This document shows, in pieces, positions 17,827-31,041 of a stretch of DNA of 32,000 nucleotides (position 1 is the stretch's first letter; every line of letters begins with the position of its first letter). The notes under the pieces are model-generated. The model was not told the DNA's origin, ran no database searches, and worked only from the letters and a program-made list of their open reading frames with translations. The stretch covers positions 7,890,001-7,922,000 of the forward strand of contig NC_010628.1 in assembly GCF_000020025.1 (NCBI RefSeq), written 5' to 3'. A program made the translations under genes and the position numbers. This DNA is from Nostoc punctiforme PCC 73102 (lineage in GTDB: Bacteria; Cyanobacteriota; Cyanobacteriia; Cyanobacteriales; Nostocaceae).

Positions 17827-19818
17827 TTAAACTAGAGCGTACACTTTCGCTTCCCAGGGGAAGATGCCTTCTCTGCCTACCCATTCTGATGGAACTATCC
17901 GTTCTTGAGTAATTTCCTTCCACTGCTTGCCAACTGGGGTTGCAGGCCAATTTGGGACTCTGTACTCAGAAGCAGGAGGAGTGCCGTAGTCAGAGAAATT
18001 CGCCACTACAACTACTAATTGATCGGCTTTATTACCACGTTGCCAGACTAGAACTCGCTTACCCTCATTAAAGTCAACATGAATAAATTTAGTATCATTC
18101 ACAGCTAAAGCATGAGAAGTTTTACGCAAGCGAACCAACCTCGCAACATATTGGAAAATTCGTTGCCGCCAATCATCTTTCACACGGCTGTAGTTAACTG
18201 GGTCAATTTGCTTATGATCGTCTGTTGTAGCTAAATCTTGTTGATCGGCAAATTCATCTCCGGCCAGGATCATGGGAATCCCTACAGAGGTAAGCAGGGA
18301 AACAAATGCTAACTTAATACGCGGTTCAGTATCAGCAATTCCATTACTAACCAAATAGCTAAAGAAACGCTCGTTACCATAACCACCAACATCATGGGAA
18401 GTTATATAGTTTACCGCCTGAGAGCCATCTGTAAAGCCTAAGTTTCGGCAATCAATTAGTTTGCGAATACTCCACTCAAAGCTGGGTTCATCCCAGGCAT
18501 TCTTACCTAAAATTACTTGTCGGATGATTTGCTTAAACTTTTCATTCCAAAGTCCATCCAGACGATTTTGTTGGATGAGAGATAGGGGTACACTCAACTC
18601 TTCGCCAACTACGAGGAAGCGATCGCCACTTCCGCCTCTTTTGTCCCAAAGGGTGCGGGCAAAATCCTTAAATTCCTGCAAAAAGTCATAGTTGGCAATA
18701 TTGTTCACGCTATCCAACCGCAGACCATCAACCCGATAGTATTCCAACCAGTGGGCAATATGGGCTTTTAAGTATTCACGGGCTGGCACAAGCCATGACT
18801 TTTGCCCAGTAATGGGATTATAACCCTCTACCCAATAGTTGTACTTAAATAAGTCCCCACCAAAGCCATCTCTTGATCCTTGTTCTGGATCGCCACTGGC
18901 CCATTTGATGTAAAATTCCAAAAAATTAACGTTATGTTAAGGATTATTCCGCGAAAATGCCATTACCACATCCACAAAAAAGCGCAACCCTTGCTGATGG
19001 CAGGCTTTAATCAGGTTAGCTAAATCAGTTGAAGCAGTAGGTGCTGACTGGCTATCTGGACGGCCTAAGTCAAAATCTGCTGCAAAATAATTTGCTGTAC
19101 CATAGCCCCAATTGAGATTATCATCGCTGTCTTCTGGTGGCAGAAGTTCTAAGGCGTTGATTCCCAGTTCCACAAGATGAGCGCGGTTATTCAAGGCGGT
19201 GAGCATAGGAAAAGTAGGAGCGATCGCTTCTGGTATCAAGAGTGCCAGTACGTCACGAAATGTCCCGACTCCTTCTTCAATCAATCCATTTGAGTTAATC
19301 TTTGTCCATCGGGTTGGTAATTCGTAAATCACCAGTTGATTATTGGTGGGTAGCGTCTCTAAAGGAGCATCACCTTCCCAATTTACAGTTTGCCCCTGTG
19401 GATCGCAGGGAATCAACGTCCCATTCTGATAAAGCACGACGCTTGCCGGATCGAAGCTATTAACGCCTCCCGATTCTGACGGCGTTGGTGCAGGAAAGCG
19501 CCGATCTACAGTCGTCGCTGTTGGATCTGTACAGTAGAGAATTTGGTTAGCATTGGCAGCTGCGTAGGGGTCTGAGTTGCGGACTTTAAACCAGTAAAAA
19601 TAGACCTGTCCTTCAGTCAGGCCAGATTCTTTAGCCGAAACTTCCCACAATTCTGGAAATTCTGCTGATTGACGAAGCGGAATTTCTCTCAATTTAGCTA
19701 ATCTGTCTGGGCTTTCAGGACTAGTGTTGCCAATGTAGAGAGTGGGAGCTAGTTCTGAAGCACCGACACGCCACAAGACAAAATGAGTTTTTTTACGGCT
19801 TAATAGATCGATAGGCAT
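17827..19818 (-). pseudogene. GH13 (alpha-amylase family) glycoside hydrolase split by a single in-frame TAA (complement of 18937-18939)
   Basis: ORFs 18937-19818 and 17827-18921 are in the same frame. Read-through gives ...FFVDVVMAFSRNNP*HNVNFLEFYIKWASGD... GH13 regions II-IV lie in the downstream part (VDGLRLDSVNNI, LVVGEELS, NYITSHD). The track start of the second ORF is a TTG. Confidence 0.8.
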
Positions 19819-21974: not shown

Positions 21975-22139
21975 TTACGAAAAACTGGGGATTTCAGAGT
22001 TAGAATCTTTTGATGTTGCAGTAGAGCGCGATGGTGAAGTGTTTTGGATTTTTTCAGACAGAATTACTAGCAATTTAGGCAGCGCAAGGCAAGCAACAGT
22101 ATTTAGCAGCGTTAGTAATATACCATCGATTAAACTCAT
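21975..22139 (-). CDS. Small membrane-anchored protein (54 aa), not in the ORF track; paralog of ORF 30796-31041
   Basis: My translation reads MSLIDGILLTLLNTVACLALPKLLVILSEKIQNTSPSRSTATSKDSNSEIPSFS*. AAGGA lies 9 nt upstream of the ATG. It shares 17 of the first 26 residues with the 81-aa ORF (MNLIDTILLTLLNITICVAFPKLVAI...). Confidence 0.5.
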   Translation of the reverse strand: MSLIDGILLTLLNTVACLALPKLLVILSEKIQNTSPSRSTATSKDSNSEIPSFS

Positions 22140-22353
22140 GTGCGATCGTCCTTATTTCAAAATTGGTGTTTACTATATTTTTAGTTTGAAGCAAAATTAG
22201 TACAATTGCTTCAAAGCAGCATTTTAATTTCTTTTATCGGTTATAAGCTAACTAAATATATTCTTATAATTTAAATTTGACTCGTAAAATCTCTTTTTTC
22301 TCTCAGCGTCGCGCCAGTTGCTACAAGTCGGGGAACCCGCCCAACGCACTGGC

Positions 22354-22409
22354 TTCTCTGTGCCTCTGTGGTTAAAAAGTAGTTAATTTAACCACAGAGG
22401 CGCAGAGAA
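22354..22409. repeat. Long hairpin repeat (22-bp stem, 12-nt loop) 30 nt downstream of the operon's last gene
   Basis: TTCTCTGTGCCTCTGTGGTTAA (22354-22375) pairs with TTAACCACAGAGGCGCAGAGAA (22388-22409) with one mismatch. No U tract follows on the minus strand, so it is a structured repeat and a possible but non-canonical terminator. Confidence 0.8.
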
Positions 22410-22438
22410 CACAGAGGTAAGAAGTGAAATTAGCTAAC

Positions 22439-23929
22439 TTAACTATATTTGAGAAGGCGTAAGCCCTCTAAGCGGAGAGCTTCAGGATATAGAGCTTTAT
22501 AAATATTGCAATTTGGAGATTGAATATCATAACGGCCTGTAGCCTTAAACGTAGCCAGAGAGCAACCACCCGTACACCAGTATTTCCATTCACATGTACG
22601 ACAGCCTTCTTTTTCCTCAACAGATAAATTCTGAATACCTGTTTTATCTTGTCGCACAACAGTTAAAGGATCTTGAGCATCAACAGAGGATATAGTTTTA
22701 TGTAGCTGCATCTGACATTTGGCAATTTGTCCTTGGTAATCAAATACAAGATAGCTTTGCCCAACTCCACAAGTTCGTTTATGAGGAGATGCTAAATTAG
22801 CACGATCAACTAATGAACCTAATAAGCTACGATTAGGTAATTTCAATTCAATAACTTTGAATGCTGCTAACATTCCCTGAATCATTCTATATTCTTCTAG
22901 TTGCAAATCTTCGTAAGAAGCTGACAATTCATTTTCACGATAAAAGTTTAAACTAAAGGGCAGATTATGCTCCAATATCCATTCAATCAGATCGGGTAAT
23001 CCTTCTGCATTGCGCCCGCTAATGGTAATGGAAATATCGGGTACTAGCCCATTTGCTAAAGCAATCTTAATACCCCTTTCCACATCTTGAAATGAACCCT
23101 TTCCACCTGCATAAGTTCGTTGGATATTGTGGAAATCTGATAATCCATCTAGTGAAATCATGAGACGCAGATTCAATATTTTAAGCATCTCGATAATCTC
23201 AGGCGTAATCAATATTCCATTAGTGAGAACAACTCCATCTAATATAATGCCTCTTTCCTTGCTAAGTGATTGAGCATATAAATGCAGTTCTTTAATTAAA
23301 GCAGAGCATAATAATGCTTCTCCTCCCGCATACTTTAGTTTGACGCGGCGGTAATTATTTAAGCTAGCAGAGCGAAATATAGATTCAATAGCTGCTCTGC
23401 CTATATCTATTGACATATCCCTGGCTAAATGAGGAAGATAGCAGTAGTCACATCTTAAGTTACAGCGATCGGTGATATGTAACCATGCAGATAAAGTTTC
23501 TGGTATTTCATTTAGGTTAAATGGGCTATTGTTTTTAGGAATAATTAAACGGGCTTGATATAGTTCCTGAATAGCTGTCTGTAAGTCGGTTTGGTTAATG
23601 TGATAATTCTCTTTTGTGATCTCATCTAATTTATGAGAATTTGTAAATGTATTTCGTAAATATAATGCGGATTCATTTAGAACTGCTACTTTATGATTAC
23701 CATAACAGATAGAGTAAGTATCATCTAGATTCATTATTTGCGAATTGGGAGATATGACAAACTCTGTCTCAAATATCCCCAGAGATAATGATGTATCTGA
23801 GCCTAATTCTGCTAAAGGGGATAAGTCACAGGCACAATCCCCTCCATCACAATCGCATTGTCCAGTTAGTACGCAGGTAGAATTGAGAGAAACTAAAATT
23901 CTGGGTCGATCAATTTTTTTACTAAGCAT
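22439..23929 (-). CDS. Radical SAM/SPASM-domain enzyme with an N-terminal Cys/Asp-rich segment and an RRE (PqqD-like) region
   Basis: The rSAM cluster motif is HITDRCNLRCDYCY and the SAM-binding motif is KYAGGEALL. The SPASM motif is CRTCEWKYWCTGGC (Cx2Cx5Cx3C), with upstream CGVGQSYLVFDYQGQIAKC and downstream SPNCNIY. The first ATG (23929) overlaps the upstream stop as ATGCTTAG. The track start at 23953 is a GTG. Confidence 0.85.
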   Translation of the reverse strand: MLSKKIDRPRILVSLNSTCVLTGQCDCDGGDCACDLSPLAELGSDTSLSLGIFETEFVISPNSQIMNLDDTYSICYGNHKVAVLNESALYLRNTFTNSHKLDEITKENYHINQTDLQTAIQELYQARLIIPKNNSPFNLNEIPETLSAWLHITDRCNLRCDYCYLPHLARDMSIDIGRAAIESIFRSASLNNYRRVKLKYAGGEALLCSALIKELHLYAQSLSKERGIILDGVVLTNGILITPEIIEMLKILNLRLMISLDGLSDFHNIQRTYAGGKGSFQDVERGIKIALANGLVPDISITISGRNAEGLPDLIEWILEHNLPFSLNFYRENELSASYEDLQLEEYRMIQGMLAAFKVIELKLPNRSLLGSLVDRANLASPHKRTCGVGQSYLVFDYQGQIAKCQMQLHKTISSVDAQDPLTVVRQDKTGIQNLSVEEKEGCRTCEWKYWCTGGCSLATFKATGRYDIQSPNCNIYKALYPEALRLEGLRLLKYS

Positions 23930-26714
23930 GAGAAGATGGCTGTTTTGTTGCACGGATTCTAGTCAAAAACATTTGTTGATCGCACCATTCTTTGAGAGCT
24001 TTATTGTCTTGCCAATGATGTTTGAGTTGCTGGATTAGGGTTTTAGAAAGTTCTATAGGCAACCGTTCGATTTTCTTTTGGAGCAGATTTAACTCATGTT
24101 GGATCGAATAGGGCCCAAAACCTCCATCCTGGAAGATTTGGGGTATGCCTTGAGCATATTTTGCAAAGGCAAGATCGTAGTTCGCCTGTTGAAATGCAAC
24201 ATCACCTTCTATCCGTAACATCCGACCAAAGTACAGTTGATAGGTATTTTGATATGACTGGAAGCGATCGCTAAGTTCTCGTGCATAATCTGAAATATGC
24301 TGGTATGCTTTTGCATAATAATCAAACTCTGCTTTCCCTACCAGGCTATCGATGGCATACCGCCTGTCATTGTACTCTAGACTAGTGTGGTAAGAGCGAT
24401 CGTTGAGTTTGAGAGCTTGTTCTTGCAAAGAGCGATCGCACTTTTGAAACCCAAGATGCCAGTAAACACTGGCCGTTTGATGCCAAATTCCAGGCAATTC
24501 CTCTTCCAGTCCATATTTTTCTGCCAGTTTCAGGCTTTTTTCTAAAGCATCTTGAGCCTGACTTAGCACATCTAGATCCCACTTTACCTGTGTTACATCC
24601 CAAACGGCTTCATTTAGTACCTCGGCACTAAACCACTGATTTAAGCCTAAATGAAAGTATGCCCTACACAATATTCGATTATCATCTTCCTCATTATTGC
24701 AACGACTTAATGCTCGTTCAAGTAGCTGTTTAGCTTTAACATAGTTCCCCTCATTTACCGAAATAGTCGCAGAGGCAATTTCAGCGTTGGCAATTTCGCG
24801 TTCAGTCTCTACACTCGCCCACATATCAATAGCAGCCTTAAAACACTGTTCAGACTTAATATAATTTTTTTGTAGACCGTATAAATATCCCAAGTTATTC
24901 TGAATACTAGCCATAACTTGAGTTAAGCCTTTGTTAGGAGTGTCAACTTCCATAGCAGCATCCCAACCTAGTTTGTAATATTTTTCAGCTTCGTTAAAAT
25001 TGTTCAGTTGTCGATACAGATAACCAACTTGGTTCGCTACACCTGGAATAGCAGATGCTAGCTTTTTCTCTTGAACCAGAGATAAACACTTTTGCTGATA
25101 TTTCAAAGCTTCCTCATAAAGATGTAACTTAGCATTCAGCATTCCCAAGACATTGCAAAGGTCTGGTTGATGAGAAGAATTAGAAGATTTATCAGCTAAC
25201 ATAGCTTCTAATTTTTTCACTTCATTTTCTGTTGTACCCTTGTCTTTAAGGGCGTGGACAAGCTTTGCTTCAAAAATAATCAATTTAAATCTTTGGTCGA
25301 AATTTAGTTGTTTTTCAAACTGTTTTACAACCGCCAATAATTGATTAACAAAGCTGAATTTCTTTGATTGACTGCGTATCGTATTAGTAACTTCATGCCA
25401 AGTTTCAAAGCCGATAGTTGGGTCAGCCTCTAAAGCATTCCATAGCCATCGTCTTGTATTGAATTCTCGCTGCTGTTTTAGTTCTTCAATTAGAAACTCA
25501 ATATTAGCGGCTTTATTATAATTATCAGAATAAAGTTGAACCTCCAATATCCTTTTCTGCGGCCCTAGCTGATAATCTTTTTTCTCAAAATATTTGGATG
25601 CAATCCGACTATCTCGTTTTCTCCATTCAAAATCTGGGTCAATATCTGCCCATACATATTTATTAACCAAGTCTCGCACAATATCATGCAATGCTATTTG
25701 AGAACCACTGATTACTGGTTTGATAAAAAAGTAGCTCTGAGCATCAATAAATAATTTTTGAGCATCTTCTATCGATAGTTCTAATAGATTAGCAATATCA
25801 GAACTATCTAATGGATAAATACGTGAAAGTAACAAGGTTAGCCTATCCATTGATGTCCGAAGCTGCGTAATATGTCGAACCATCTCAGCTTCAAATCCAC
25901 CCGTTTTTTCTAACCTGGCTGGAATAGTTTCTATATCTTCACTCTCTAACCAATCTGGAATAACTTCTCGATAAGCATATTCTACTCCAAATTCAATCAT
26001 AATGGGGCTACCACCAGAAAGAACTATGATCTTTTGAACTAAGTCTTTCCCAAGAGTAAAATGAAGTTGCTCCTCTTTGGAAAGAATGTATGTCTGTACA
26101 TCTTCATGAGTAAATTCATTTAACTCCAAATAAGTTAATTCTGCTTCTGTAAACGATTTTTCCAAAATTTGGCGAGCAATACTAGGGCGGCCTGCTAAAA
26201 TCAATACGGCATTATCTAGTTGCTGGCATAGATTACCAATATATTCCCAAACTTCCGCTCTTCCCTCTGCTTGTCCTAACTTCTCAACTGTATCAATTAA
26301 AAATACTAATCTCTTTTGTTTAGATTTTCGATTAATTTCATCGACTAAAAACTTTTCAAGTTGTCTGCGTTCTTCTTGGTATGCAGTTTGACTGAGGTGG
26401 TTTTCATCTTCTCGTAGTTGTCGTAATCGGAGCAGCCATTCTTGATATGTATTCTCATACAATTGCTTAGCGATTTGAGTGCATAAATCTTCTGCATCGT
26501 TAAAAACAGGAGTATCGCAATCAATAATTTCACTTGTTCCAATGTTTACTTGATTGAGGCGGTTTTGTAATTCATTAAGCAACCAAGTTTTGCCAATTCC
26601 GCCTCTACCCTCCACCAAAACAACATGAAGCTTATTAGCTTTTTGAACAAGGGTAATAATTCGATTTAGATGTTCTTCACGACCAACAAACTCTAATTTA
26701 TCTATTTCAGACAT
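23922..26714 (-). CDS. STAND-class P-loop NTPase (AAA_16/NB-ARC-like) with a C-terminal TPR repeat array
   Basis: 930 aa. FVGREEHLNRI precedes the Walker A GRGGIGKTWLL. Walker B is RLVFLIDTVE and the GxP-like motif is LSGGSPIM. From about residue 520 there are TPR-like units (NVLGMLNAKLHLYEEALKYQQKCL, NQVGYLYRQLNNFNEAEKYYK, NNLGYLYGLQKNYIKSEQCFKAAI and others). AGGAG sits upstream of the ATG. Confidence 0.8.
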   Translation of the reverse strand: MSEIDKLEFVGREEHLNRIITLVQKANKLHVVLVEGRGGIGKTWLLNELQNRLNQVNIGTSEIIDCDTPVFNDAEDLCTQIAKQLYENTYQEWLLRLRQLREDENHLSQTAYQEERRQLEKFLVDEINRKSKQKRLVFLIDTVEKLGQAEGRAEVWEYIGNLCQQLDNAVLILAGRPSIARQILEKSFTEAELTYLELNEFTHEDVQTYILSKEEQLHFTLGKDLVQKIIVLSGGSPIMIEFGVEYAYREVIPDWLESEDIETIPARLEKTGGFEAEMVRHITQLRTSMDRLTLLLSRIYPLDSSDIANLLELSIEDAQKLFIDAQSYFFIKPVISGSQIALHDIVRDLVNKYVWADIDPDFEWRKRDSRIASKYFEKKDYQLGPQKRILEVQLYSDNYNKAANIEFLIEELKQQREFNTRRWLWNALEADPTIGFETWHEVTNTIRSQSKKFSFVNQLLAVVKQFEKQLNFDQRFKLIIFEAKLVHALKDKGTTENEVKKLEAMLADKSSNSSHQPDLCNVLGMLNAKLHLYEEALKYQQKCLSLVQEKKLASAIPGVANQVGYLYRQLNNFNEAEKYYKLGWDAAMEVDTPNKGLTQVMASIQNNLGYLYGLQKNYIKSEQCFKAAIDMWASVETEREIANAEIASATISVNEGNYVKAKQLLERALSRCNNEEDDNRILCRAYFHLGLNQWFSAEVLNEAVWDVTQVKWDLDVLSQAQDALEKSLKLAEKYGLEEELPGIWHQTASVYWHLGFQKCDRSLQEQALKLNDRSYHTSLEYNDRRYAIDSLVGKAEFDYYAKAYQHISDYARELSDRFQSYQNTYQLYFGRMLRIEGDVAFQQANYDLAFAKYAQGIPQIFQDGGFGPYSIQHELNLLQKKIERLPIELSKTLIQQLKHHWQDNKALKEWCDQQMFLTRIRATKQPSSHA

Positions 26715-26728
26715 AATAGGCTCCTGAG

Positions 26729-28387
26729 TTAATTATTTTGAATAGCTTCATCAAGCTTATGAATTAAATAGTTATAGGGTGTGTCATTATATTCCTCATT
26801 GTGAAGATAGTAATTTACAAGAAACTGAAATTCCCAGTCATGCTCTACTTCAGATTTAAGCGTAGACAGAAATTCATGGGTTTGCTCTCGGTCTGTATTG
26901 CGGAATATTCCAATAGTTTCTTCAACAGTTTCGTCAAAGAAAGTTTTACGAAGTTCTTTTCGATAAGTCAAACTATCAGTACCAGAATTGATAAATCCAG
27001 CATGTTGCTGAAGACTTTGAAAAAAATACTGCATTGACCAAGTTCCCGCCACCGCAGAATCATTCTTGGATTTAAGCTCGTGAACATATTCCCAGCAAAT
27101 TTGAGCTGCTTCGCTACAAAGCTTTTGAAAGCTATCAGGTGAGCTTTCTCGGAGAAGGCCAATAACTAGCAGCCGACGGGTCATTCCATCTTTGATAATT
27201 GTTTTATCACGAGTAAAAATTGATGTCTTTGTCAGTTCGGCGTTTAATTTAAAGCTATCATCACTAAAAGGTAACTGAAATCTTCTAACGGCTTCCTTTA
27301 ATATCCAATTTCCATTTAGTATAGGAAATATACTAAGTTTTTCAATAGATTCGTATAGATTATTGTTTTCTTTTGTCAAGCTTTCTTTAATCTGATCTCT
27401 ACAATGTTTGAGGGTTTTTTCCCATAATTTGCTACCATAAGTTTTTAAAAACAAATTAACTGTGTAACCACCACTTCGATAAACTTTTAGGGCTTCAGCA
27501 ATCCCCCCTGGATGTCCGCCAGTTAGATAAAGTAAGTGTCCTGCTAGTAGTGCAAGACTTTCAGAGGTCATCTCAATCGGCTTGAGATATTTGGTCGCTG
27601 TATCTTGAATAACTTCCCAGTTAAAAGGTGAGAGAATTAGTTTAGGAAGAATCCGATCTGGAGGAAGATCGGTAAGACAGCGAGCTGCAATTACAACTCG
27701 AAGACTCTTGGAATTATCTTTAAAGAATTGTAATTCTTTCAAACAATTTTCAATTCTCCATCCTAATTCTTTAAGCTGAACAAAAATTTCACTTAAACGT
27801 TGTTTTTGTGGGGCATTTCCATCCAGATCGATTAGCAATACAATACCTTTTTGCCCCTGCGATTGCCACCTAGCCCAATTTCTATGTAATAATAAACCTA
27901 AGCGTTCTCCCCAAGGCAACTCATTCCCTTCTTCAATCTTTAGACTGAGAGAATTAGCTAATTCTTTTTCTAAGTCTTCAATATTTTGATCGCCGGACAT
28001 GGAAGCATAAGCGCAACACCATTGTAATTCTTGAAAGCGCTTCTGGATCTGTTTGAGAAATTCGGTTTTTCCGTAACCTTTAGGAGCCGTTATCAAACGA
28101 TAAGTAGGAGAATTATTTGCTGTAATATCACTAATTGCAGCATCCCGATTAGTAAATGGTATTTTATCAGGATCAACTTGCTCTAGAGTTTCTTGATTTA
28201 GCTGGCTTAACTCTGATTCAGCTTTTTCTATTTCCTTAAATTTATTCTCAAGTTGCCTTTCTAATTGATCTTTCTGTACATTATTTAGCGTCCACCCTAT
28301 TTGGTTGCTGAGACTTTCAATGTCAGTGGTTAAACGGGCTATTAACTGCTCAAGAGACTTCTTTCGTAAATCTAAGGAATTTTTCAT
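26729..28387 (-). CDS. STAND-like P-loop NTPase with an N-terminal coiled-coil adaptor head and no recognisable repeat sensor
   Basis: 552 aa. Residues 7-63 are heptad-like helix. FTNRDAAISDI precedes the Walker A APKGYGKTEF. Walker B is GIVLLIDLDG and the GxP-like motif is YLTGGHPGGIAEAL. The C-terminal ~200 aa are helical with no family I recognise. Confidence 0.7.
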   Translation of the reverse strand: MKNSLDLRKKSLEQLIARLTTDIESLSNQIGWTLNNVQKDQLERQLENKFKEIEKAESELSQLNQETLEQVDPDKIPFTNRDAAISDITANNSPTYRLITAPKGYGKTEFLKQIQKRFQELQWCCAYASMSGDQNIEDLEKELANSLSLKIEEGNELPWGERLGLLLHRNWARWQSQGQKGIVLLIDLDGNAPQKQRLSEIFVQLKELGWRIENCLKELQFFKDNSKSLRVVIAARCLTDLPPDRILPKLILSPFNWEVIQDTATKYLKPIEMTSESLALLAGHLLYLTGGHPGGIAEALKVYRSGGYTVNLFLKTYGSKLWEKTLKHCRDQIKESLTKENNNLYESIEKLSIFPILNGNWILKEAVRRFQLPFSDDSFKLNAELTKTSIFTRDKTIIKDGMTRRLLVIGLLRESSPDSFQKLCSEAAQICWEYVHELKSKNDSAVAGTWSMQYFFQSLQQHAGFINSGTDSLTYRKELRKTFFDETVEETIGIFRNTDREQTHEFLSTLKSEVEHDWEFQFLVNYYLHNEEYNDTPYNYLIHKLDEAIQNN

Positions 28388-28392
28388 TGCAT

Positions 28393-29280
28393 TTAAATGG
28401 CATTAAGTTCGCTTTCTACTCGACCGAGTTCTTGGAGTATGGTGTTGATTTGGCGCTGAATGATATTGCGATCGCTCGCAGCGAGTGTATAGTTAAGCTG
28501 GTTGTATGCTGCTTCGTAGTCACTGCTTAGAACCTCAAAGCGTTGTTGCAAAGTCTTAATTTTGAGTTGTTGTACCCGGCTGGGGCTATTCTGAGTATGT
28601 GCATTTGATGAAATCGGCAAGGTTATTTCATCCCATGCTTTGCTCAATACGTCCACCGGAATCATGAAAGCAGTCTTGATATCTTCTCGCTGTTTCTCCG
28701 CCGCTACAGCCATACCAACCACTCCTGCAAGGGTTTCATCCCATATAGGCGCACCACTAAAGCCCGGTTCTATCCTGTAGCCAGTTACCTTACTATCTTC
28801 CAATTGCACCCATCCCTTTCCTTGCCCATCTCGCAACACCCCTGTAGACCAAACGCCATCATTGTGCCCGTGAGGAAAACCAAATATGCGGAAAGGATGT
28901 CCCCAAACGTTATTAGCCCAGATGAGCTTAATAGGTTGCGCTTCATGAGGTAATTGTCCTTCTATTTGCAACCCGGCAATATCTTCAGGTTCGGAGGTTG
29001 ATACATTGTTGACAACAGGTTGCCAAAAAACAACTTTAGCTTTTAGTTTTTGCCCTGGTGCAATTAGGGGGAAATCTAAGCAAATATCATGACTAGGAGC
29101 TTCAACTATATCTTCTGGTAAAGATAGAGCCGAAGTAACAACGTGAGCGCATGTCAGGATATAATTTTGACTTCGCCCTGACACTAAAAAACCTACACCA
29201 ACTACCGCACCATTCGGATGAAAAATCCGAGCGATCGCTGATCTAAAAGCTGGAATATAATTATCTGCAATCGATGCCAT
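28393..29280 (-). CDS. Trypsin-like (S1/Trypsin_2) serine protease with a C-terminal ~57-aa helical tail
   Basis: 295 aa. The catalytic triad candidates are His46 (LTCAHVV), Asp100 (PEDIAGLQI) and Ser175 (EPGFSGAPIW). The tail, residues 239-295, reads LKIKTLQQRFEVLSSDYEAAYNQLNYTLAASDRNIIQRQINTILQELGRVESELNAI. Confidence 0.8.
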   Translation of the reverse strand: MASIADNYIPAFRSAIARIFHPNGAVVGVGFLVSGRSQNYILTCAHVVTSALSLPEDIVEAPSHDICLDFPLIAPGQKLKAKVVFWQPVVNNVSTSEPEDIAGLQIEGQLPHEAQPIKLIWANNVWGHPFRIFGFPHGHNDGVWSTGVLRDGQGKGWVQLEDSKVTGYRIEPGFSGAPIWDETLAGVVGMAVAAEKQREDIKTAFMIPVDVLSKAWDEITLPISSNAHTQNSPSRVQQLKIKTLQQRFEVLSSDYEAAYNQLNYTLAASDRNIIQRQINTILQELGRVESELNAI

Positions 29281-29286
29281 ACGTTA

Positions 29287-29628
29287 CTATGCCTTGTCTT
29301 GCTTCCATTTCAAGGTAATTTCGTAGTTAGCTTCACCACCTACAGAAGTGAAAATTGCACCTGCAACAGCATTTAATTTAATACCAAATTTCACCTCTAC
29401 CTCATCGGCAGGTGTATTAAGCTGACTCAGTTTGATGATAATTGCTGAAGCTACAGGTTGTATTTGATCCAATACTTCATCAAATTTCTTTTTAGCTTCA
29501 ACTACTATTTGCCCAGCATCTGGTCTAGCAACACGTACAAGAGAATTGCTATTTTCTGGCTCATCAACTTCAGCTAAAAACTTTGTGCCATCTTCTAGAG
29601 AAAACTCTGTTATCTGTTTCCGAATCAT
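29287..29628 (-). CDS. Trypco2-like (trypsin-co-occurring domain / CU044_2847-like) small protein
   Basis: 113 aa from the ATG at 29628; the track start at 29649 is a TTG. The pattern FSLEDGTKFLAEVDEPE...VEAKKKFDEVLDQIQPVA...PADEVEVKFGIKLNAVAGAIF...EANYEITLKW matches my recollection of this family, which sits beside trypsin-like peptidases. The stop lies 6 nt before the protease ATG. Confidence 0.6.
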   Translation of the reverse strand: MIRKQITEFSLEDGTKFLAEVDEPENSNSLVRVARPDAGQIVVEAKKKFDEVLDQIQPVASAIIIKLSQLNTPADEVEVKFGIKLNAVAGAIFTSVGGEANYEITLKWKQDKA

Positions 29629-29764
29629 AGTAAGACCTGTTATTTTCAATTAATAGTTGAATGTGTAAATAATCAAGATATCTTGTCGAAGTTTTTTGGA
29701 GATAATCTTATTTTCATCTAAGAGGTTGTTTTCAAAGTGTTTGGCTGTGCTTTTAAGTACTTCT

Positions 29765-30040
29765 AGATTCCCCCTAACCCCCCTTTTTAAGAGCTACCGT
29801 GTATACACAAGTCGTATTACCCCCCTTAATCCCCCCGATATATTGGGGGGAAATAATATTTCCGGTTCCCTCACCTTTATAAGGGGAGGGTTAGGGTGGG
29901 GTAAAACCTGTGTTCTTCAGCTATTTTCAGACTTGTGTATACACCGTAGCTTTTTAAGAGGGGGGAACCGGAATTAAAGTCCCCTTTTAAAGGGGATTTG
30001 GGGGTATTTAGAACTTTTAATACCGACAAGGGGACTTTTA
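29765..30040. repeat. Composite MITE-like block of nested G-run/C-run hairpins
   Basis: AGCTACCGTGTATACACAAGTC (29792-29813) pairs with GACTTGTGTATACACCGTAGCT (29930-29951) with one mismatch. Internal palindromes include CCCCCCGATATATTGGGGGG (29831-29850), ATTTCCGGTTC/GAACCGGAAT and AGTCCCCTT/AAGGGGACT. The track ORF 29696-29977 merely reads through this block. Confidence 0.75.
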
Positions 30041-30137: not shown

Positions 30138-30499
30138 AATGCTTGCTGCAAACTTTTCTTGGTCAATTCTAGAAGTTTGTGAAGTTTCTTAATAAACTGA
30201 CCAACTTTCGGCTGTTTGGGCGTTAAAGCTGTTTGACTCTCATGTAATAGATTTAACAATTAATATATTAATGGTTATATTAGTTATATATGGACTCTAA
30301 CTTCAATTAGTAATTATACTGAGTTAAACTCTGGCAAGGAAACTAAGGTATAGTGCAAGCCTAGGAGTTTCAAGTAGTTTTTAGCCTTGCATTTCGAGTC
30401 TTAGCGGGTTTAGTAATACTCTTTAATTAAGGCAAAAGATGCGATTTATCGGGTTTTTGTGATGTTTATAGCAATCCTGAATCATTGCTGATAAACACA

Positions 30500-30530
30500 G
30501 ATCCCCGACTTCTTAAAGAAGTCGGGGATC
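30500..30530. repeat. Perfect 31-nt palindrome
   Basis: GATCCCCGACTTCTTAAAGAAGTCGGGGATC has 15-nt arms. It resembles dispersed Nostoc-type hairpin repeats. Confidence 0.85.
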
Positions 30531-30795
30531 TGGGGGTTGCAATTCTTACAAATCAAATAGGATCGCTACTGAACGGCGCGATCGCACTGTGAAATTATGT
30601 ACGTACTGTTCAATATGCTTGTGTGGAAATGATAAATACTTACAGCATAAGAGTTTCAGCAATGATAGTCGAATGAGCGTTAGCGTAGCTCATCGTAGAC
30701 ATCGCTTGAATAAGTAGACGCATAAACTATCATTTGGAATGCAAAAATATAGGTGTTGGAAAAAAATAAATTTTTCCAATTTGGCAAACAATCCA

Positions 30796-31041
30796 TCAAT
30801 TTGGAGAACACTTAGAACAAAAATCAGGACTGAATTTGCAGTATTGACTACCTGTTAATGAGTACGCTGTACAATAAGGAAAACTCGTGAGTCCAATTTT
30901 GGCTGTTTGCAATTTTGAACCGTTCCGCGACACTCCATTCGGTTTGGTTTTATCAGCCAGAAAGATTGCTACAAGCTTAGGAAACGCTACGCAAATAGTA
31001 ATATTGAGCAGCGTCAATAGTATAGTGTCTATCAAATTCAT
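30796..31041 (-). CDS. Small membrane-anchored protein (81 aa) with a Cys- and aromatic-rich C-terminal tail
   Basis: AGGAGA lies 9 nt upstream of the ATG. The N-terminus MNLIDTILLTLLNITICVAFPKLVAIFL is hydrophobic. The tail FPYCTAYSLTGSQYCKFSPDFCSKCSPN has 4 Cys and 6 Phe/Tyr in 28 residues. The N-terminus is paralogous to the 54-aa ORF at 21975-22139. Confidence 0.55.
   Translation of the reverse strand: MNLIDTILLTLLNITICVAFPKLVAIFLADKTKPNGVSRNGSKLQTAKIGLTSFPYCTAYSLTGSQYCKFSPDFCSKCSPN

Follow-up and report, generated by a model that had tools for sequence, protein, structure and literature searches.

The operon described here lies in a 32,000-nt stretch of the Nostoc punctiforme PCC 73102 chromosome (NC_010628.1, positions 7,890,001 to 7,922,000), referred to as the window, to which all coordinates apply. 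According to the ORF translations its five genes all occupy the minus strand: g1 (29649/29628-29287), g2 (29280-28393, 295 aa), g3 (28387-26729, 552 aa), g4 (26714-23922, 930 aa) and g5 (23929-22439). They encode a trypsin-co-occurring protein, a trypsin-like protease, two STAND NTPases and a radical SAM (rSAM)/SPASM enzyme. The intergenic gaps of g1 to g4 measure 6, 5 and 14 nt, and the g4 stop and g5 ATG overlap in an 8-nt string read directly from the letters, ATGCTTAG. Coordinates and letters confirm this packing as it was given in a preliminary description of the locus, which had also seen no hairpin between the genes; none of the g1-g5 junctions has a terminator-like site. Weak terminator-like matches inside the operon remain at shuffle level (7 observed, 6.4 expected from shuffles). 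Strong hairpins flank the operon on both sides (30532-30498 and 22349-22414). The second, an unstranded inverted repeat detected by repeat search (22349-22414; 28-nt arms, 89% complementary, 10-nt loop), starts 25 nt past the g5 stop and is likely the 3' boundary of the transcription unit. The surroundings in N. punctiforme consist of housekeeping genes, with no defence island, and the position of the operon in the Nostoc chromosome is conserved in part.

The protease cassette and the paired STAND NTPases

The first gene (29287-29628, minus strand) encodes a Trypco1 (trypsin-co-occurring domain 1) protein according to Pfam PF19493 (E 6e-26) and NCBIfam CU044_2847 (E 1e-20), and not the Trypco2 protein originally suggested. 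Its longest ORF opens at TTG 29649; the start is placed at ATG 29628 because the resulting 113-aa form is identical to GenBank ACC84682.1 and agrees with the homologs (109-115 aa). The protease domain of g2 (aa 28-211 of 295; 28648-29199, minus strand) matches Trypsin_2 (E 7e-13) and Trypsin (E 2e-5), and the triad proposed for it, His46, Asp100 and Ser175, is present when residues are counted in the translation. At its C-terminus g2 carries an EAD9 adaptor (aa 234-295; 28396-28581, minus strand; Pfam EAD9, E 3e-23) with a counterpart at the N-terminus of g3 (aa 4-63 of 552; 28199-28378, minus strand; Pfam EAD9, E 7e-17), to which it is 32% identical (pairwise E 2e-9). Judged by these profile hits, protease and NTPase are connected through a matched EAD9-EAD9 pair.

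The remainder of g3 comprises a STAND NOD (nucleotide-binding oligomerisation) module, designated the 'helper' NTPase (aa 74-441; 27065-28168, minus strand) and delimited by hhalign against the g4 family and by motifs (Walker A APKGYGKTE, containing GYGKT; Walker B LLIDLDG; GGHP), followed by a 110-aa tail (to 26729) without a repeat array; AAA_22/ATPase_2 profiles match it weakly. The 'sensor' NTPase g4 opens with its NOD module (aa 5-382 of 930; 25569-26702, minus strand), which matches NACHT (E 5e-10), nSTAND1 (E 4e-9), NB-ARC (E 3e-7) and AAA_22 (E 1e-12) and contains GRGGIGKTW, FLIDTVE and GGSP; profile search found no N-terminal effector or adaptor. A TPR array follows at about aa 500-900 (24015-25217, minus strand; TPR_12, TPR_10, TPR_8 and TPR_2), and solved TPR proteins match the g4 profile over about positions 450-830. 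This array is 84-90% identical among Nostoc orthologs, like the rest of the operon, and is not hypervariable.

When the g3 and g4 families are aligned with hhalign, residues 74-441 of g3 fall on residues 5-382 of g4 (99.2% probability, E 2e-19); by this profile comparison the two NODs are paralogs, and in both families the Walker A and B motifs and the GxP motif are shared between phyla. Their domain content is complementary, adaptor plus NOD in g3 and NOD plus TPR in g4, and it fits, together with the paralogy of the NODs, the earlier proposal of the TPR-STAND as sensor and the second STAND as relay.

The radical SAM/SPASM enzyme

The start of g5 at ATG 23929 (496 aa) is supported by GenBank ACC84678 and by homologs. 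The Radical_SAM profile matches it (E 9e-17), and CNLRCDYC and the SPASM motif CRTCEWKYWCTGGC are both present in the translation, as are all the P-loop, GGHP/GGSP, rSAM and SPASM motifs previously listed for g3 to g5. Profile searches on the five proteins uphold the trypsin, STAND and rSAM assignments of the preliminary description and reject that of Trypco2. The rSAM core (C156-x3-C160-x2-C163) and the SPASM domain (C387, C405, C443, C446, C452, C456 and C474) extend to the stop codon (22439-23485, minus strand), and these ten cysteines are invariant among 84 homologs. The best fold matches and nearest relatives of g5 are peptide maturases (TigE, CteB, anSME and ChlB; by HMM also PapB and QhpD). 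The enzyme was also considered as a viperin and rejected, as it scores 53 bits (cutoff 180) and possesses a SPASM domain.

Upstream of the core lies a strand-rich segment followed by helices (H86-96, H101-107, H113-125), modelled by AF2 at pLDDT 83-93, which is described as an RRE-like (RiPP recognition element) peptide-binding domain (aa 56-135; 23525-23764, minus strand). The g5 family profile (64-284) aligns with residues 11-239 of CteB (5wgg; E 1e-33), whose N-terminal part is its peptide-binding RRE. The first 55 residues (23765-23929, minus strand) form a tail delimited from column counts in homologs and AF2 (low confidence, pLDDT 44-63, with a short strand at residues 11-13). It contains two conserved islands between variable flanks, P9-x-[IVL]-[LI] and Q24-CDCDGGDCAC-D35 (nt 23860-23825), with P9 kept in 76/84 homologs, C25 in 72/84, C32 in 83/84 and C34 in 70/84. 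A strict regular expression recovers the Cys motif in 60 of 82 distinct tails, DCAC variants occur in most of the others, and in some homologs copies of the tail motifs stand both before and after the RRE. Three features were absent from the preliminary description: the pair of EAD9 domains, the Cys motif of the tail and the RRE-like domain.

The search for a substrate in loci across lineages found no conserved separate precursor gene, nor an exporter or leader peptidase conserved with the rSAM. A small Cys-rich upstream gene, s81, was examined as a precursor and discarded, being absent from three of the loci (L041-L043) and from all non-cyanobacterial ones. The only conserved candidate substrate is the disordered, acidic, Cys-rich tail of the enzyme itself, with its PxIL leader-like strand and DCAC motifs. 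Conservation of these features makes a Cys-rich peptide the probable target of cross-linking by g5, with the enzyme's own tail as the most plausible choice, and the cross-link is probably a Cys thioether; the tail cysteines could bind metal instead of being cross-linked.

Conserved core and exchangeable modules across lineages

The order g1-g5 is kept in 43/43 five-gene Nostocales loci, which is far beyond chance. Order conservation and profiles together bear out the claim that the five genes belong together as a conserved 'conflict system' unit of Trypco/EAD/STAND type. As shown by comparative genomics at the level of predicted domains, the operon consists of a fixed core (short STAND g3, its TPR-STAND paralog g4 and the rSAM/SPASM enzyme g5) and a variable effector part. 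The core occurs in Cyanobacteria, Chloroflexota, Blastocatellia and Desulfobacterales. Among non-Nostoc-type loci the long STAND gene lies immediately upstream of the rSAM gene in 32/32 for which 3.2 kb or more is available upstream, and the short paralog is also present in 26 of the 29 with at least 5.5 kb; the rSAM was present in all three contexts reached from g3 homologs. Genes g4 and g5 are tightly coupled, overlapping by 8 nt both in the window and in L087 and by 4 nt in L002, with a gap of 7-10 nt in L001, L004 and L088. No component is more constant or better conserved than the rSAM. Filamentous taxa (Nostocales, Chloroflexota) are strongly over-represented in the distribution, no relatives were found on viral contigs, and gene neighbours at other loci include integrase, toxin-antitoxin, MADS, TIR, PNP and AAA_15 genes in an anecdotal census without background control.

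As effectors, g3-like proteins are linked to trypsin through EAD9, through EAD8 or by fusion, to TIR by fusion or through EAD7, and to unnamed modules. The window operon represents the trypsin-EAD9 pair (g2-g3). Elsewhere Trypco1 and trypsin (L086) or TIR (L080 and L087) are fused to the g3-like protein, which in L087 is 63% identical to Nostoc g3, TIR-EAD7 accompanies EAD7-g3 (L072), EAD8-trypsin accompanies EAD8-g3 (L078), and L004, L054 and L085 carry unnamed adaptor pairs (38-55% identity). The Trypco1-trypsin-EAD9 cassette also occurs with EAD9-iSTAND-MoxR-vWA cores (L089 and L090). Such exchange of cassettes follows the rule for EAD coupling set out by Kaur et al. 2020 (PMC7159879).

Proposed function and comparison with known systems

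We favour, at a probability of roughly 0.55, the reading that the operon would constitute one modular NLR-like conflict system, most likely anti-phage or for regulated cell death, with a three-protein core and a plug-in effector. Its sensor/helper STAND organization, function and defence role are what we infer from gene content. The TPR array of g4 would recognise a trigger; the paralogous NODs of g4 and g3, whose paralogy and linkage suggest a heteromeric assembly, would co-oligomerise in an NTP-dependent manner; and because this would cluster the EAD9 domains, the EAD9-tagged protease could be recruited and activated by proximity. The rSAM would be a fixed core enzyme, not a weapon, installing a radical cross-link on a peptide, and the g5 tail might serve to license the STAND complex, to latch it or to report on it. 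Weighing against a defence reading are the housekeeping neighbourhood in N. punctiforme, the missing system-level match in PADLOC and the TPR array that is not hypervariable.

An unlikely alternative, raised in the preliminary description as a protease-gated RiPP-like pathway and weak in that form, is that the rSAM-matured peptide is the real product (a toxin or filament signal), with the STAND-TPR proteins acting as regulators or receptors of it. It has models in the peptide-binding TPR receptors of quorum sensing and in the AP-ATPase-TPR proteins beside Fxs peptides. For Fxs-type rSAM plus AP-ATPase-TPR loci, Kaur et al. (2020; PMC7159879) proposed that a peptide is processed to serve as a signal or toxin. 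The resemblance of g5 to RiPP maturases, its RRE-like domain, the skew to filamentous taxa and the availability of the Nostoc g2 protease, which could free the tail peptide, also favour it. Against it, neither a separate precursor nor a transporter nor a protease is conserved with the rSAM across lineages, s81 included; relatives carry TIR or other modules in place of the protease, and conflict systems are characteristically marked by EAD adaptors and TIR domains.

It is also doubtful that the rSAM is a terminal effector that, after triggering of the STAND pair, does irreversible damage to a protein of invader or host, by cross-linking or in another way, with the g3-linked module as a parallel second arm. 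Translational coupling of g5 to the sensor g4, the irreversibility of radical chemistry and the antiviral rSAM effectors known as prokaryotic viperins, a generic similarity only, speak for it. However, effectors are the variable part in such systems, the tail motifs and RRE-like domain suggest that the enzyme has a dedicated peptide substrate co-evolving with it and not a foreign target, and g5 is not viperin-like. As to the suggestion that the protease and/or the rSAM executes the response, the rSAM makes an implausible variable executioner: nothing in the system is more constant, whereas the protease can be exchanged for other effectors (TIR and other EAD-linked modules).

Improbable too is a regulated cell-death or self/non-self module (developmental or for kin recognition) that is not directed at phage. 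The over-representation of filamentous taxa, the housekeeping neighbourhood and partly conserved chromosomal position, the TPR array that is not hypervariable and the viral contigs without relatives agree with it, but the EAD, TIR and Trypco-trypsin grammar is common to systems predicted to be counter-invader, and integrases, toxin-antitoxin modules and MADS genes adjoin some loci. That the Trypco1-trypsin-EAD9 cassette with its EAD9-NTPase and the STAND-TPR plus rSAM pair are unrelated neighbours by chance, as the other cores of the cassette and the Fxs-like look of the pair might suggest, is highly improbable and already disfavoured by the adjacency of g3-like, g4-like and rSAM genes in the same order and strand in four phyla, the rSAM in every g3 homolog context examined and the paralogy and complementary domains of g3 and g4.

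As a whole, the operon represents a widespread candidate immune (conflict) system that is apparently undescribed. PADLOC gave no system-level match, a named family for the system was found neither in NCBIfam nor in PADLOC, and no paper describing it was found, in agreement with the earlier view that the exact combination is not known from an experimentally characterised system. Overall the preliminary interpretation is partly supported, with defence as its putative function. The precedent it saw in Fxs loci holds for the architecture and not for membership, since FxsB scores g5 at 54 bits (cutoff 370) and no FxSxx precursor was found at the window operon. The proposed EAD9 recruitment resembles the way in which a sensor NLR and a helper NLR bring in a caspase by CARD-CARD interaction. 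EAD9-linked peptidases have been viewed as signalling components and not as terminal effectors (Kaur et al., 2020; PMC7159879), and in the Nostoc version the g2 protease may accordingly signal rather than kill.

Gene content and boundaries of the operon

The operon of Nostoc punctiforme PCC 73102 occupies positions 29649/29628-22439 on the minus strand and encodes, in order, a Trypco1 protein (g1), a trypsin-like protease (g2), a short STAND NTPase (g3), a long STAND NTPase with TPRs (g4) and a radical SAM (rSAM)/SPASM enzyme (g5), deposited in GenBank as ACC84682 to ACC84678. The ORF coordinates reproduce the gaps of 6, 5 and 14 nt noted in the preliminary description as well as the 8-nt ATGCTTAG stop/start overlap at the g4/g5 junction; the sequence motifs listed there were all found in the g1-g5 translations, and its statement that no hairpin lies between the genes agrees with the lack of a terminator-like element at any of the gene junctions, all of which were checked. 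Matches to the terminator consensus inside the operon occur at the level of shuffled sequence. Upstream, a perfect hairpin of about 16-17 bp with a T-rich tail (30498-30532, minus strand) follows the small ORF s81 and is likely a terminator separating s81 from the operon; on the other side, 25 nt past the rSAM stop, comes an inverted repeat (22349-22414) whose arms are 28 nt long.

The neighbors of the operon in the window are housekeeping genes (MFS transporter, split alpha-amylase, PRK/uridine kinase, RadC, and Na+/H+ exchangers), and the downstream MFS gene is common to about half of the Nostoc loci. The alpha-amylase-family gene (17827-19818, minus strand) consists of two neighboring ORFs of 293 and 364 aa separated by 15 nt, only the second of which is matched by the Pfam Alpha-amylase profile (positions 167-385), and may represent a frameshift or a pseudogene. 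HIP1 sites (GCGATCGC) are common in the window. The 1.1-kb spacer between s81 and g1 contains nested, MITE-like (miniature inverted-repeat element) inverted repeats (29778-29976), rich in G/C runs, with 36-nt arms of 89% complementarity and an additional 27-nt pair.

Two small minus-strand ORFs flank the operon, s81 (81 aa, 30796-31041) upstream and its paralog s54 (54 aa, 21975-22139) downstream. Both share a TM-helix-like N-terminus (MxLIDxILLTLLN) and have no Pfam match; the C-terminus of s81 contains four Cys. The s81 gene is kept about 1 kb upstream of g1 in approximately 40 Nostoc loci, and s54 occurs downstream of the rSAM gene in approximately 11, but both are absent from loci L041-L043 and from the non-cyanobacterial loci. 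On account of this absence s81 is not regarded as part of the system, and it was rejected as a precursor of the rSAM enzyme.

Adaptor-coupled protease and paired STAND NTPases

The g1 product, initially described as Trypco2-like, is a Trypco1 protein (PF19493, E 6e-26, 91.3 bits vs. a cutoff of 24.6), this being its sole Pfam match at E <= 0.01; it also scores 73.8 bits against NCBIfam CU044_2847 (cutoff 23). Besides the profile match, the class calls for a neighboring gene for a trypsin-like peptidase, and g2 begins 6 nt downstream of g1. The AlphaFold model of g1 is too poor to use (mean pLDDT 53.5). As previously proposed, g2 is a trypsin-like peptidase, with the catalytic triad His46/Asp100/Ser175 intact. 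Profile searches detected an EAD9 adaptor at the C-terminus of g2 (E 3e-23) and another at the N-terminus of g3 (E 7e-17), where it precedes the P-loop NTPase; the two copies are 32% identical across 57 residues. Matching adaptors on a core NTPase-type protein and an adjacent enzyme constitute the EAD coupling predicted computationally by Kaur et al. (2020; PMC7159879), who class EAD9-linked peptidases as signaling components.

The assignment of g3 and g4 to the STAND class holds. The latter, which bears a TPR array, scores above cutoff for NACHT, nSTAND1, and NB-ARC, and in a profile-profile comparison g3 residues 74-441 align with g4 residues 5-382 over about 370 residues (99.2% probability, E 2e-19), an alignment that covers the nucleotide-binding oligomerisation module (NOD). 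The class is characterized by Walker A, Walker B, and a helical/winged-helix module containing GxP after the P-loop domain; the motifs are conserved in both families, and GKT and hhhhD are retained across the g3 family. Given the alignment and the conserved motifs, g3 and g4 are paralogous STAND modules, apparently active judging from their sequences, and their appendages complement each other: g3 has an N-terminal adaptor or effector and lacks repeats, while g4 carries TPRs and nothing N-terminal. The TPR array showed no excess divergence among Nostoc orthologs in a test for diversifying evolution and is not hypervariable. In the g4-like protein of Chloroploca (L001, 6127-9993; 1288 aa), the Walker A region is closely followed by an inserted periplasmic-binding-protein-like domain (Peripla_BP_4).

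Homologs of the rSAM enzyme with 52-60% identity are numerous outside cyanobacteria, and three such loci have the same layout (short NTPase, long NTPase-TPR, rSAM) preceded by different genes: an FGE-sulfatase, two TIR proteins, or an unknown 192-aa protein. In a pattern-limited scan that sampled each species by a single genome, relatives turned up in 303 species-level genomes, a number sufficient for comparative analysis, and 80 loci were retrieved. The order g1-g5 is kept in 43/43 five-gene Nostocales loci. The remaining 38 loci belong to Chloroflexota (mostly Anaerolineae), with one from Blastocatellia and one truncated Nostoc contig (L018). Among them the long STAND gene directly precedes the rSAM gene in 32 of 32 loci whose upstream sequence reaches 3.2 kb or more; of the 29 that reach 5.5 kb or more, 26 have the short paralog as well, the three exceptions being a fused protein of 1423 aa, an ORF of 818 aa, and a small AAA protein. 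When g3 was taken as the starting point, a g4-like gene and an rSAM gene were likewise present in the only contexts of distant homologs that were examined. One Nostoc locus (L020, 8045-10008) comprises g1, g2, a C-terminal fragment of g4, and the rSAM gene; with g3 and most of g4 deleted, it therefore looks like a decaying copy.

The genes coupled to g3 vary among these loci. The Nostoc window contains Trypco1 and trypsin-EAD9 with an EAD9-g3, whereas in L086 Trypco1 is accompanied by a trypsin fused straight onto the g3-like protein. TIR domains are fused in L080 and in L087, where the g3-like protein is 63% identical to Nostoc g3, and a TIR_2-EAD7 protein lies beside a g3-like protein with a matching N-terminus (41% identity) in L072. 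EAD7-g3 proteins occur in L061 and L076, and an EAD8-trypsin adjoins an EAD8-g3 in L078; in L004, L054, and L085 the C-terminus of a small upstream protein matches the g3-like N-terminus with 38-55% identity, constituting unnamed adaptor pairs. These gene arrangements show at the sequence level that g3 accepts interchangeable effectors, which act as plug-ins. The Trypco1 and trypsin-EAD9 cassette also adjoins EAD9-iSTAND, MoxR, vWA, and FGE-sulfatase cores in other cyanobacteria (L089, L090).

Additional features were observed at these loci. In L089 (9001-16299) and L090 (9001-17875) the cassette is followed by the iSTAND, MoxR-like AAA, vWA, and FGE-sulfatase genes; the EAD9 match on the iSTAND protein of L090 is weak, and a reverse transcriptase in the same locus suggests a diversity-generating retroelement (DGR). 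In L078 (3179-4318), a Candidatus Leptofilum locus, the EAD8-trypsin gene is directly preceded by one for a MATCAP-like metallocarboxypeptidase (E 3e-48).

The radical SAM enzyme and its N-terminal tail

The rSAM and SPASM assignment of g5 proved correct: none of the CX3CX2C cysteines (C156, C160, C163) or of the seven SPASM cysteines varies among 84 homologs. In the AlphaFold model (pLDDT 82.5), residues ~55-131, which precede the rSAM barrel, are predicted to form a strand-rich segment and three helices (H86-96, H101-107, H113-125). The family profile, at positions 64-284, aligns with the sactisynthase CteB over residues 11-239 of the latter (E 1e-33), beginning in the N-terminal part of that enzyme, which is its RiPP recognition element (RRE); the modeled fold and this alignment support an RRE-like domain in g5. 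Foldseek ranked TigE, CteB, anSME, and ChlB at the top. By alignment and modeled structure, g5 is therefore of the maturase type that modifies a peptide or protein, and at the superfamily level it combines the features of rSAM/SPASM peptide maturases (CX3CX2C, seven-Cys SPASM, RRE-like domain).

Named families were considered and rejected. The enzyme scored 141.4 bits as a PapB ranthipeptide maturase (NCBIfam cutoff 340) and 53 bits as a prokaryotic viperin (pVip, cutoff 180), the PADLOC match to pVip covering only the generic core (residues 158-316); scores for the DynA, nif11, QhpD, and SCIFF families were far below cutoffs.

The first 55 residues form a disordered and otherwise variable tail in which two islands are conserved among the 84 homologs. 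The first is P9-x-[IVL]-[LI], with P in 76/84, and the second is [D/Q]-C-D-C-(0-3 residues)-D-C-A-C, with C32 present in 83/84, C25 in 72/84, and C34 in 70/84; at its shortest, the motif consists of DCAC after an acidic run. Two copies of the Cys motif occur in the tails of L050, L077, L080, and L084, and a subfamily (L062, L065, L068, L074, L075, L079, and L081) has an additional DCAC...EDDC motif in an acidic linker that joins the RRE-like domain to the rSAM core. The AlphaFold model places a short strand at residues 11-13, its confidence for the tail being low. An exhaustive representative search with the tail and RRE (140 aa) returned only four matches at E <= 1e-3; the two short ones do not extend past the junction with the rSAM core and are perhaps truncated fragments instead of stand-alone proteins. 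The RefSeq model (WP_234711017.1, 431 aa) drops the first 65 codons of g5 (23735-23929, minus strand) and with them the PxIL and CDCxxxDCAC motifs; the longer GenBank product (ACC84678.1, 496 aa) is supported by the start positions of 82/84 homologs, which corrects an annotation error that removes a conserved motif.

The substrates of the CteB/SCIFF, PapB, and QhpD families contain Cys, paired with Asp or Glu in the case of PapB and QhpD. Since the order of elements in g5 is a leader-like strand, a Cys-rich core-like motif, and an RRE, and since the enzyme resembles families that use substrate Cys (CteB, PapB, QhpD), its sequence suggests a precursor fused to its own maturase. The tail cysteines may instead have a metal-binding role. 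Like the thioether-forming maturases (CteB/SCIFF, PapB, QhpD) and anSME, g5 combines CX3CX2C with a seven-Cys SPASM, and the alignment with CteB extends from the N-terminal part of the latter onward; it differs from all of them in HMM scores far below cutoffs, a conserved tail of its own, the lack of a separate precursor gene, and its location within a STAND operon.

Proposed mechanism and relation to known systems

In the proposed mechanism the TPRs of g4 would sense a trigger, upon which the NODs of g4 and g3 would co-assemble with NTP, and the clustered EAD9 domains would bring in the g2 protease, of which Trypco1 is a presumed obligate partner, and activate it. The rSAM enzyme most plausibly cross-links its own tail, an event that would license or gate the complex. 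In its complete form this reading, to which we assign a probability of about one in five, holds that the enzyme cross-links a tethered Cys/Asp-rich peptide (PxIL leader-like strand and DCAC core-like motifs) and that a heteromeric sensor/helper NLR-like receptor is armed or restrained by the tail, modified or unmodified, as its ligand or latch. If so, radical peptide chemistry, and with it SAM, Fe-S, and reducing status, would serve as a checkpoint built into a bacterial immune or cell-death complex. The natural effector swaps allow clear experiments, and the conserved tail motif a direct test by mass spectrometry.

Three alternatives compete with the proposed mechanism. The first is a peptide-signal or RiPP pathway, with which the maturase features of g5 are consistent; no small ORF conserved with the rSAM gene across lineages was found as a separate precursor, s81 included. 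In the second the rSAM enzyme is the terminal effector; the proposed mechanism assigns the enzyme to the constant core and not to the variable weapons. The third is a non-phage role in cell death or kin recognition. Near the loci of other lineages there are integrases, PIN/Phd toxin-antitoxin genes, PNP_UDP_1, AAA_15, and MADS genes, and a PADLOC census of 149 flanking ORFs gave scattered matches (TIR, MADS, generic ATPases, helicases), both being observations without a background control; a scan of IMG/VR viral contigs with the rSAM alignment found no relatives. Chance adjacency of two separate systems is the sole alternative that the synteny data largely exclude.

The preliminary description knew of no characterized system with this combination, and the searches agree: PADLOC gave no system-level match for the five proteins, all NCBIfam rSAM families scored below their cutoffs, and the literature search found no published description of a triad of two STANDs and an rSAM enzyme. 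A STAND family named 'Npun2340/2341' was reportedly defined by Leipe and colleagues in 2004; these may be the g3/g4 genes, in which case the NTPase pair was perhaps already cataloged.

The closest relatives are the iSTAND and VMAP MoxR-vWA ternary systems with EAD-coupled effectors, which were predicted computationally (Kaur, Burroughs, Iyer and Aravind, 2020; PMC7159879); the supplement of that paper contains no matching accessions. The operon and these systems have the same Trypco1 and trypsin-EAD9 cassette, the same EAD rule (the constant STAND-type core protein bears an adaptor at its N-terminus, and the adjacent enzyme a matching one), the same N-terminal alternatives on the core protein (TIR, trypsin, EADs), and a bias toward multicellular bacteria. 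However, the five proteins include neither MoxR AAA+ nor vWA, which places the operon outside these systems; its adaptor-bearing NTPase g3 keeps intact Walker A and B, whereas the STAND domain of iSTAND is catalytically inactive, and the partners of g3 are a paralogous STAND-TPR protein and an rSAM/SPASM enzyme. The operon shares vocabulary and grammar with the predicted ternary systems, and its defense function is putative.

The mainly actinobacterial Fxs loci (FxSxx-COOH, FxsB, and the AP-ATPase-TPR protein FxsC), cited earlier as a precedent, are comparable in part. They likewise couple an rSAM/SPASM maturase to a STAND-TPR protein inside predicted conflict systems, but the operon lacks the zincin metallopeptidase, no precursor ORF of the FxSxx-COOH type stood out on inspection of the small ORFs listed around it, and g5 is not an FxsB (TIGR04269; 54 bits vs. 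a cutoff of 370). The operon has in addition a second, helper STAND, and the enzyme itself carries the tethered motif (DCAC) that is its candidate substrate.

Immunity relies centrally on STAND/NLR-like proteins in every domain of life, and the bacterial examples studied so far are mostly single-chain proteins. Avs/AVAST and bacterial NACHT proteins combine a STAND module and a C-terminal repeat sensor with a protease, TIR, or other effector (including an Avs2 trypsin-like type). The operon resembles them in these components, and activation by oligomerisation would be expected in both. In contrast to Avs, in which effector, NOD, and sensor reside on one polypeptide, here they are split over two paralogs joined by an EAD pair, and an obligate rSAM partner is present; the PADLOC Avs profiles did not match g3 or g4 at E <= 0.01.

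Eukaryotic sensor/helper pairs include NAIP-NLRC4-caspase-1 and the plant paired NLRs. By analogy, the operon combines a sensor without an effector, a paralog with an adaptor and without a sensor, and a protease predicted to be recruited through homotypic adaptor contact, although it is bacterial, its adaptor fold is unrelated (EAD9, helical), and a radical SAM enzyme is present. The family would thus add a bacterial sensor/helper receptor pair with an effector recruited via a predicted death-domain-like adaptor, and an obligate radical SAM peptide-modifying enzyme within an NLR-type system, for which no characterized precedent was found in the literature.
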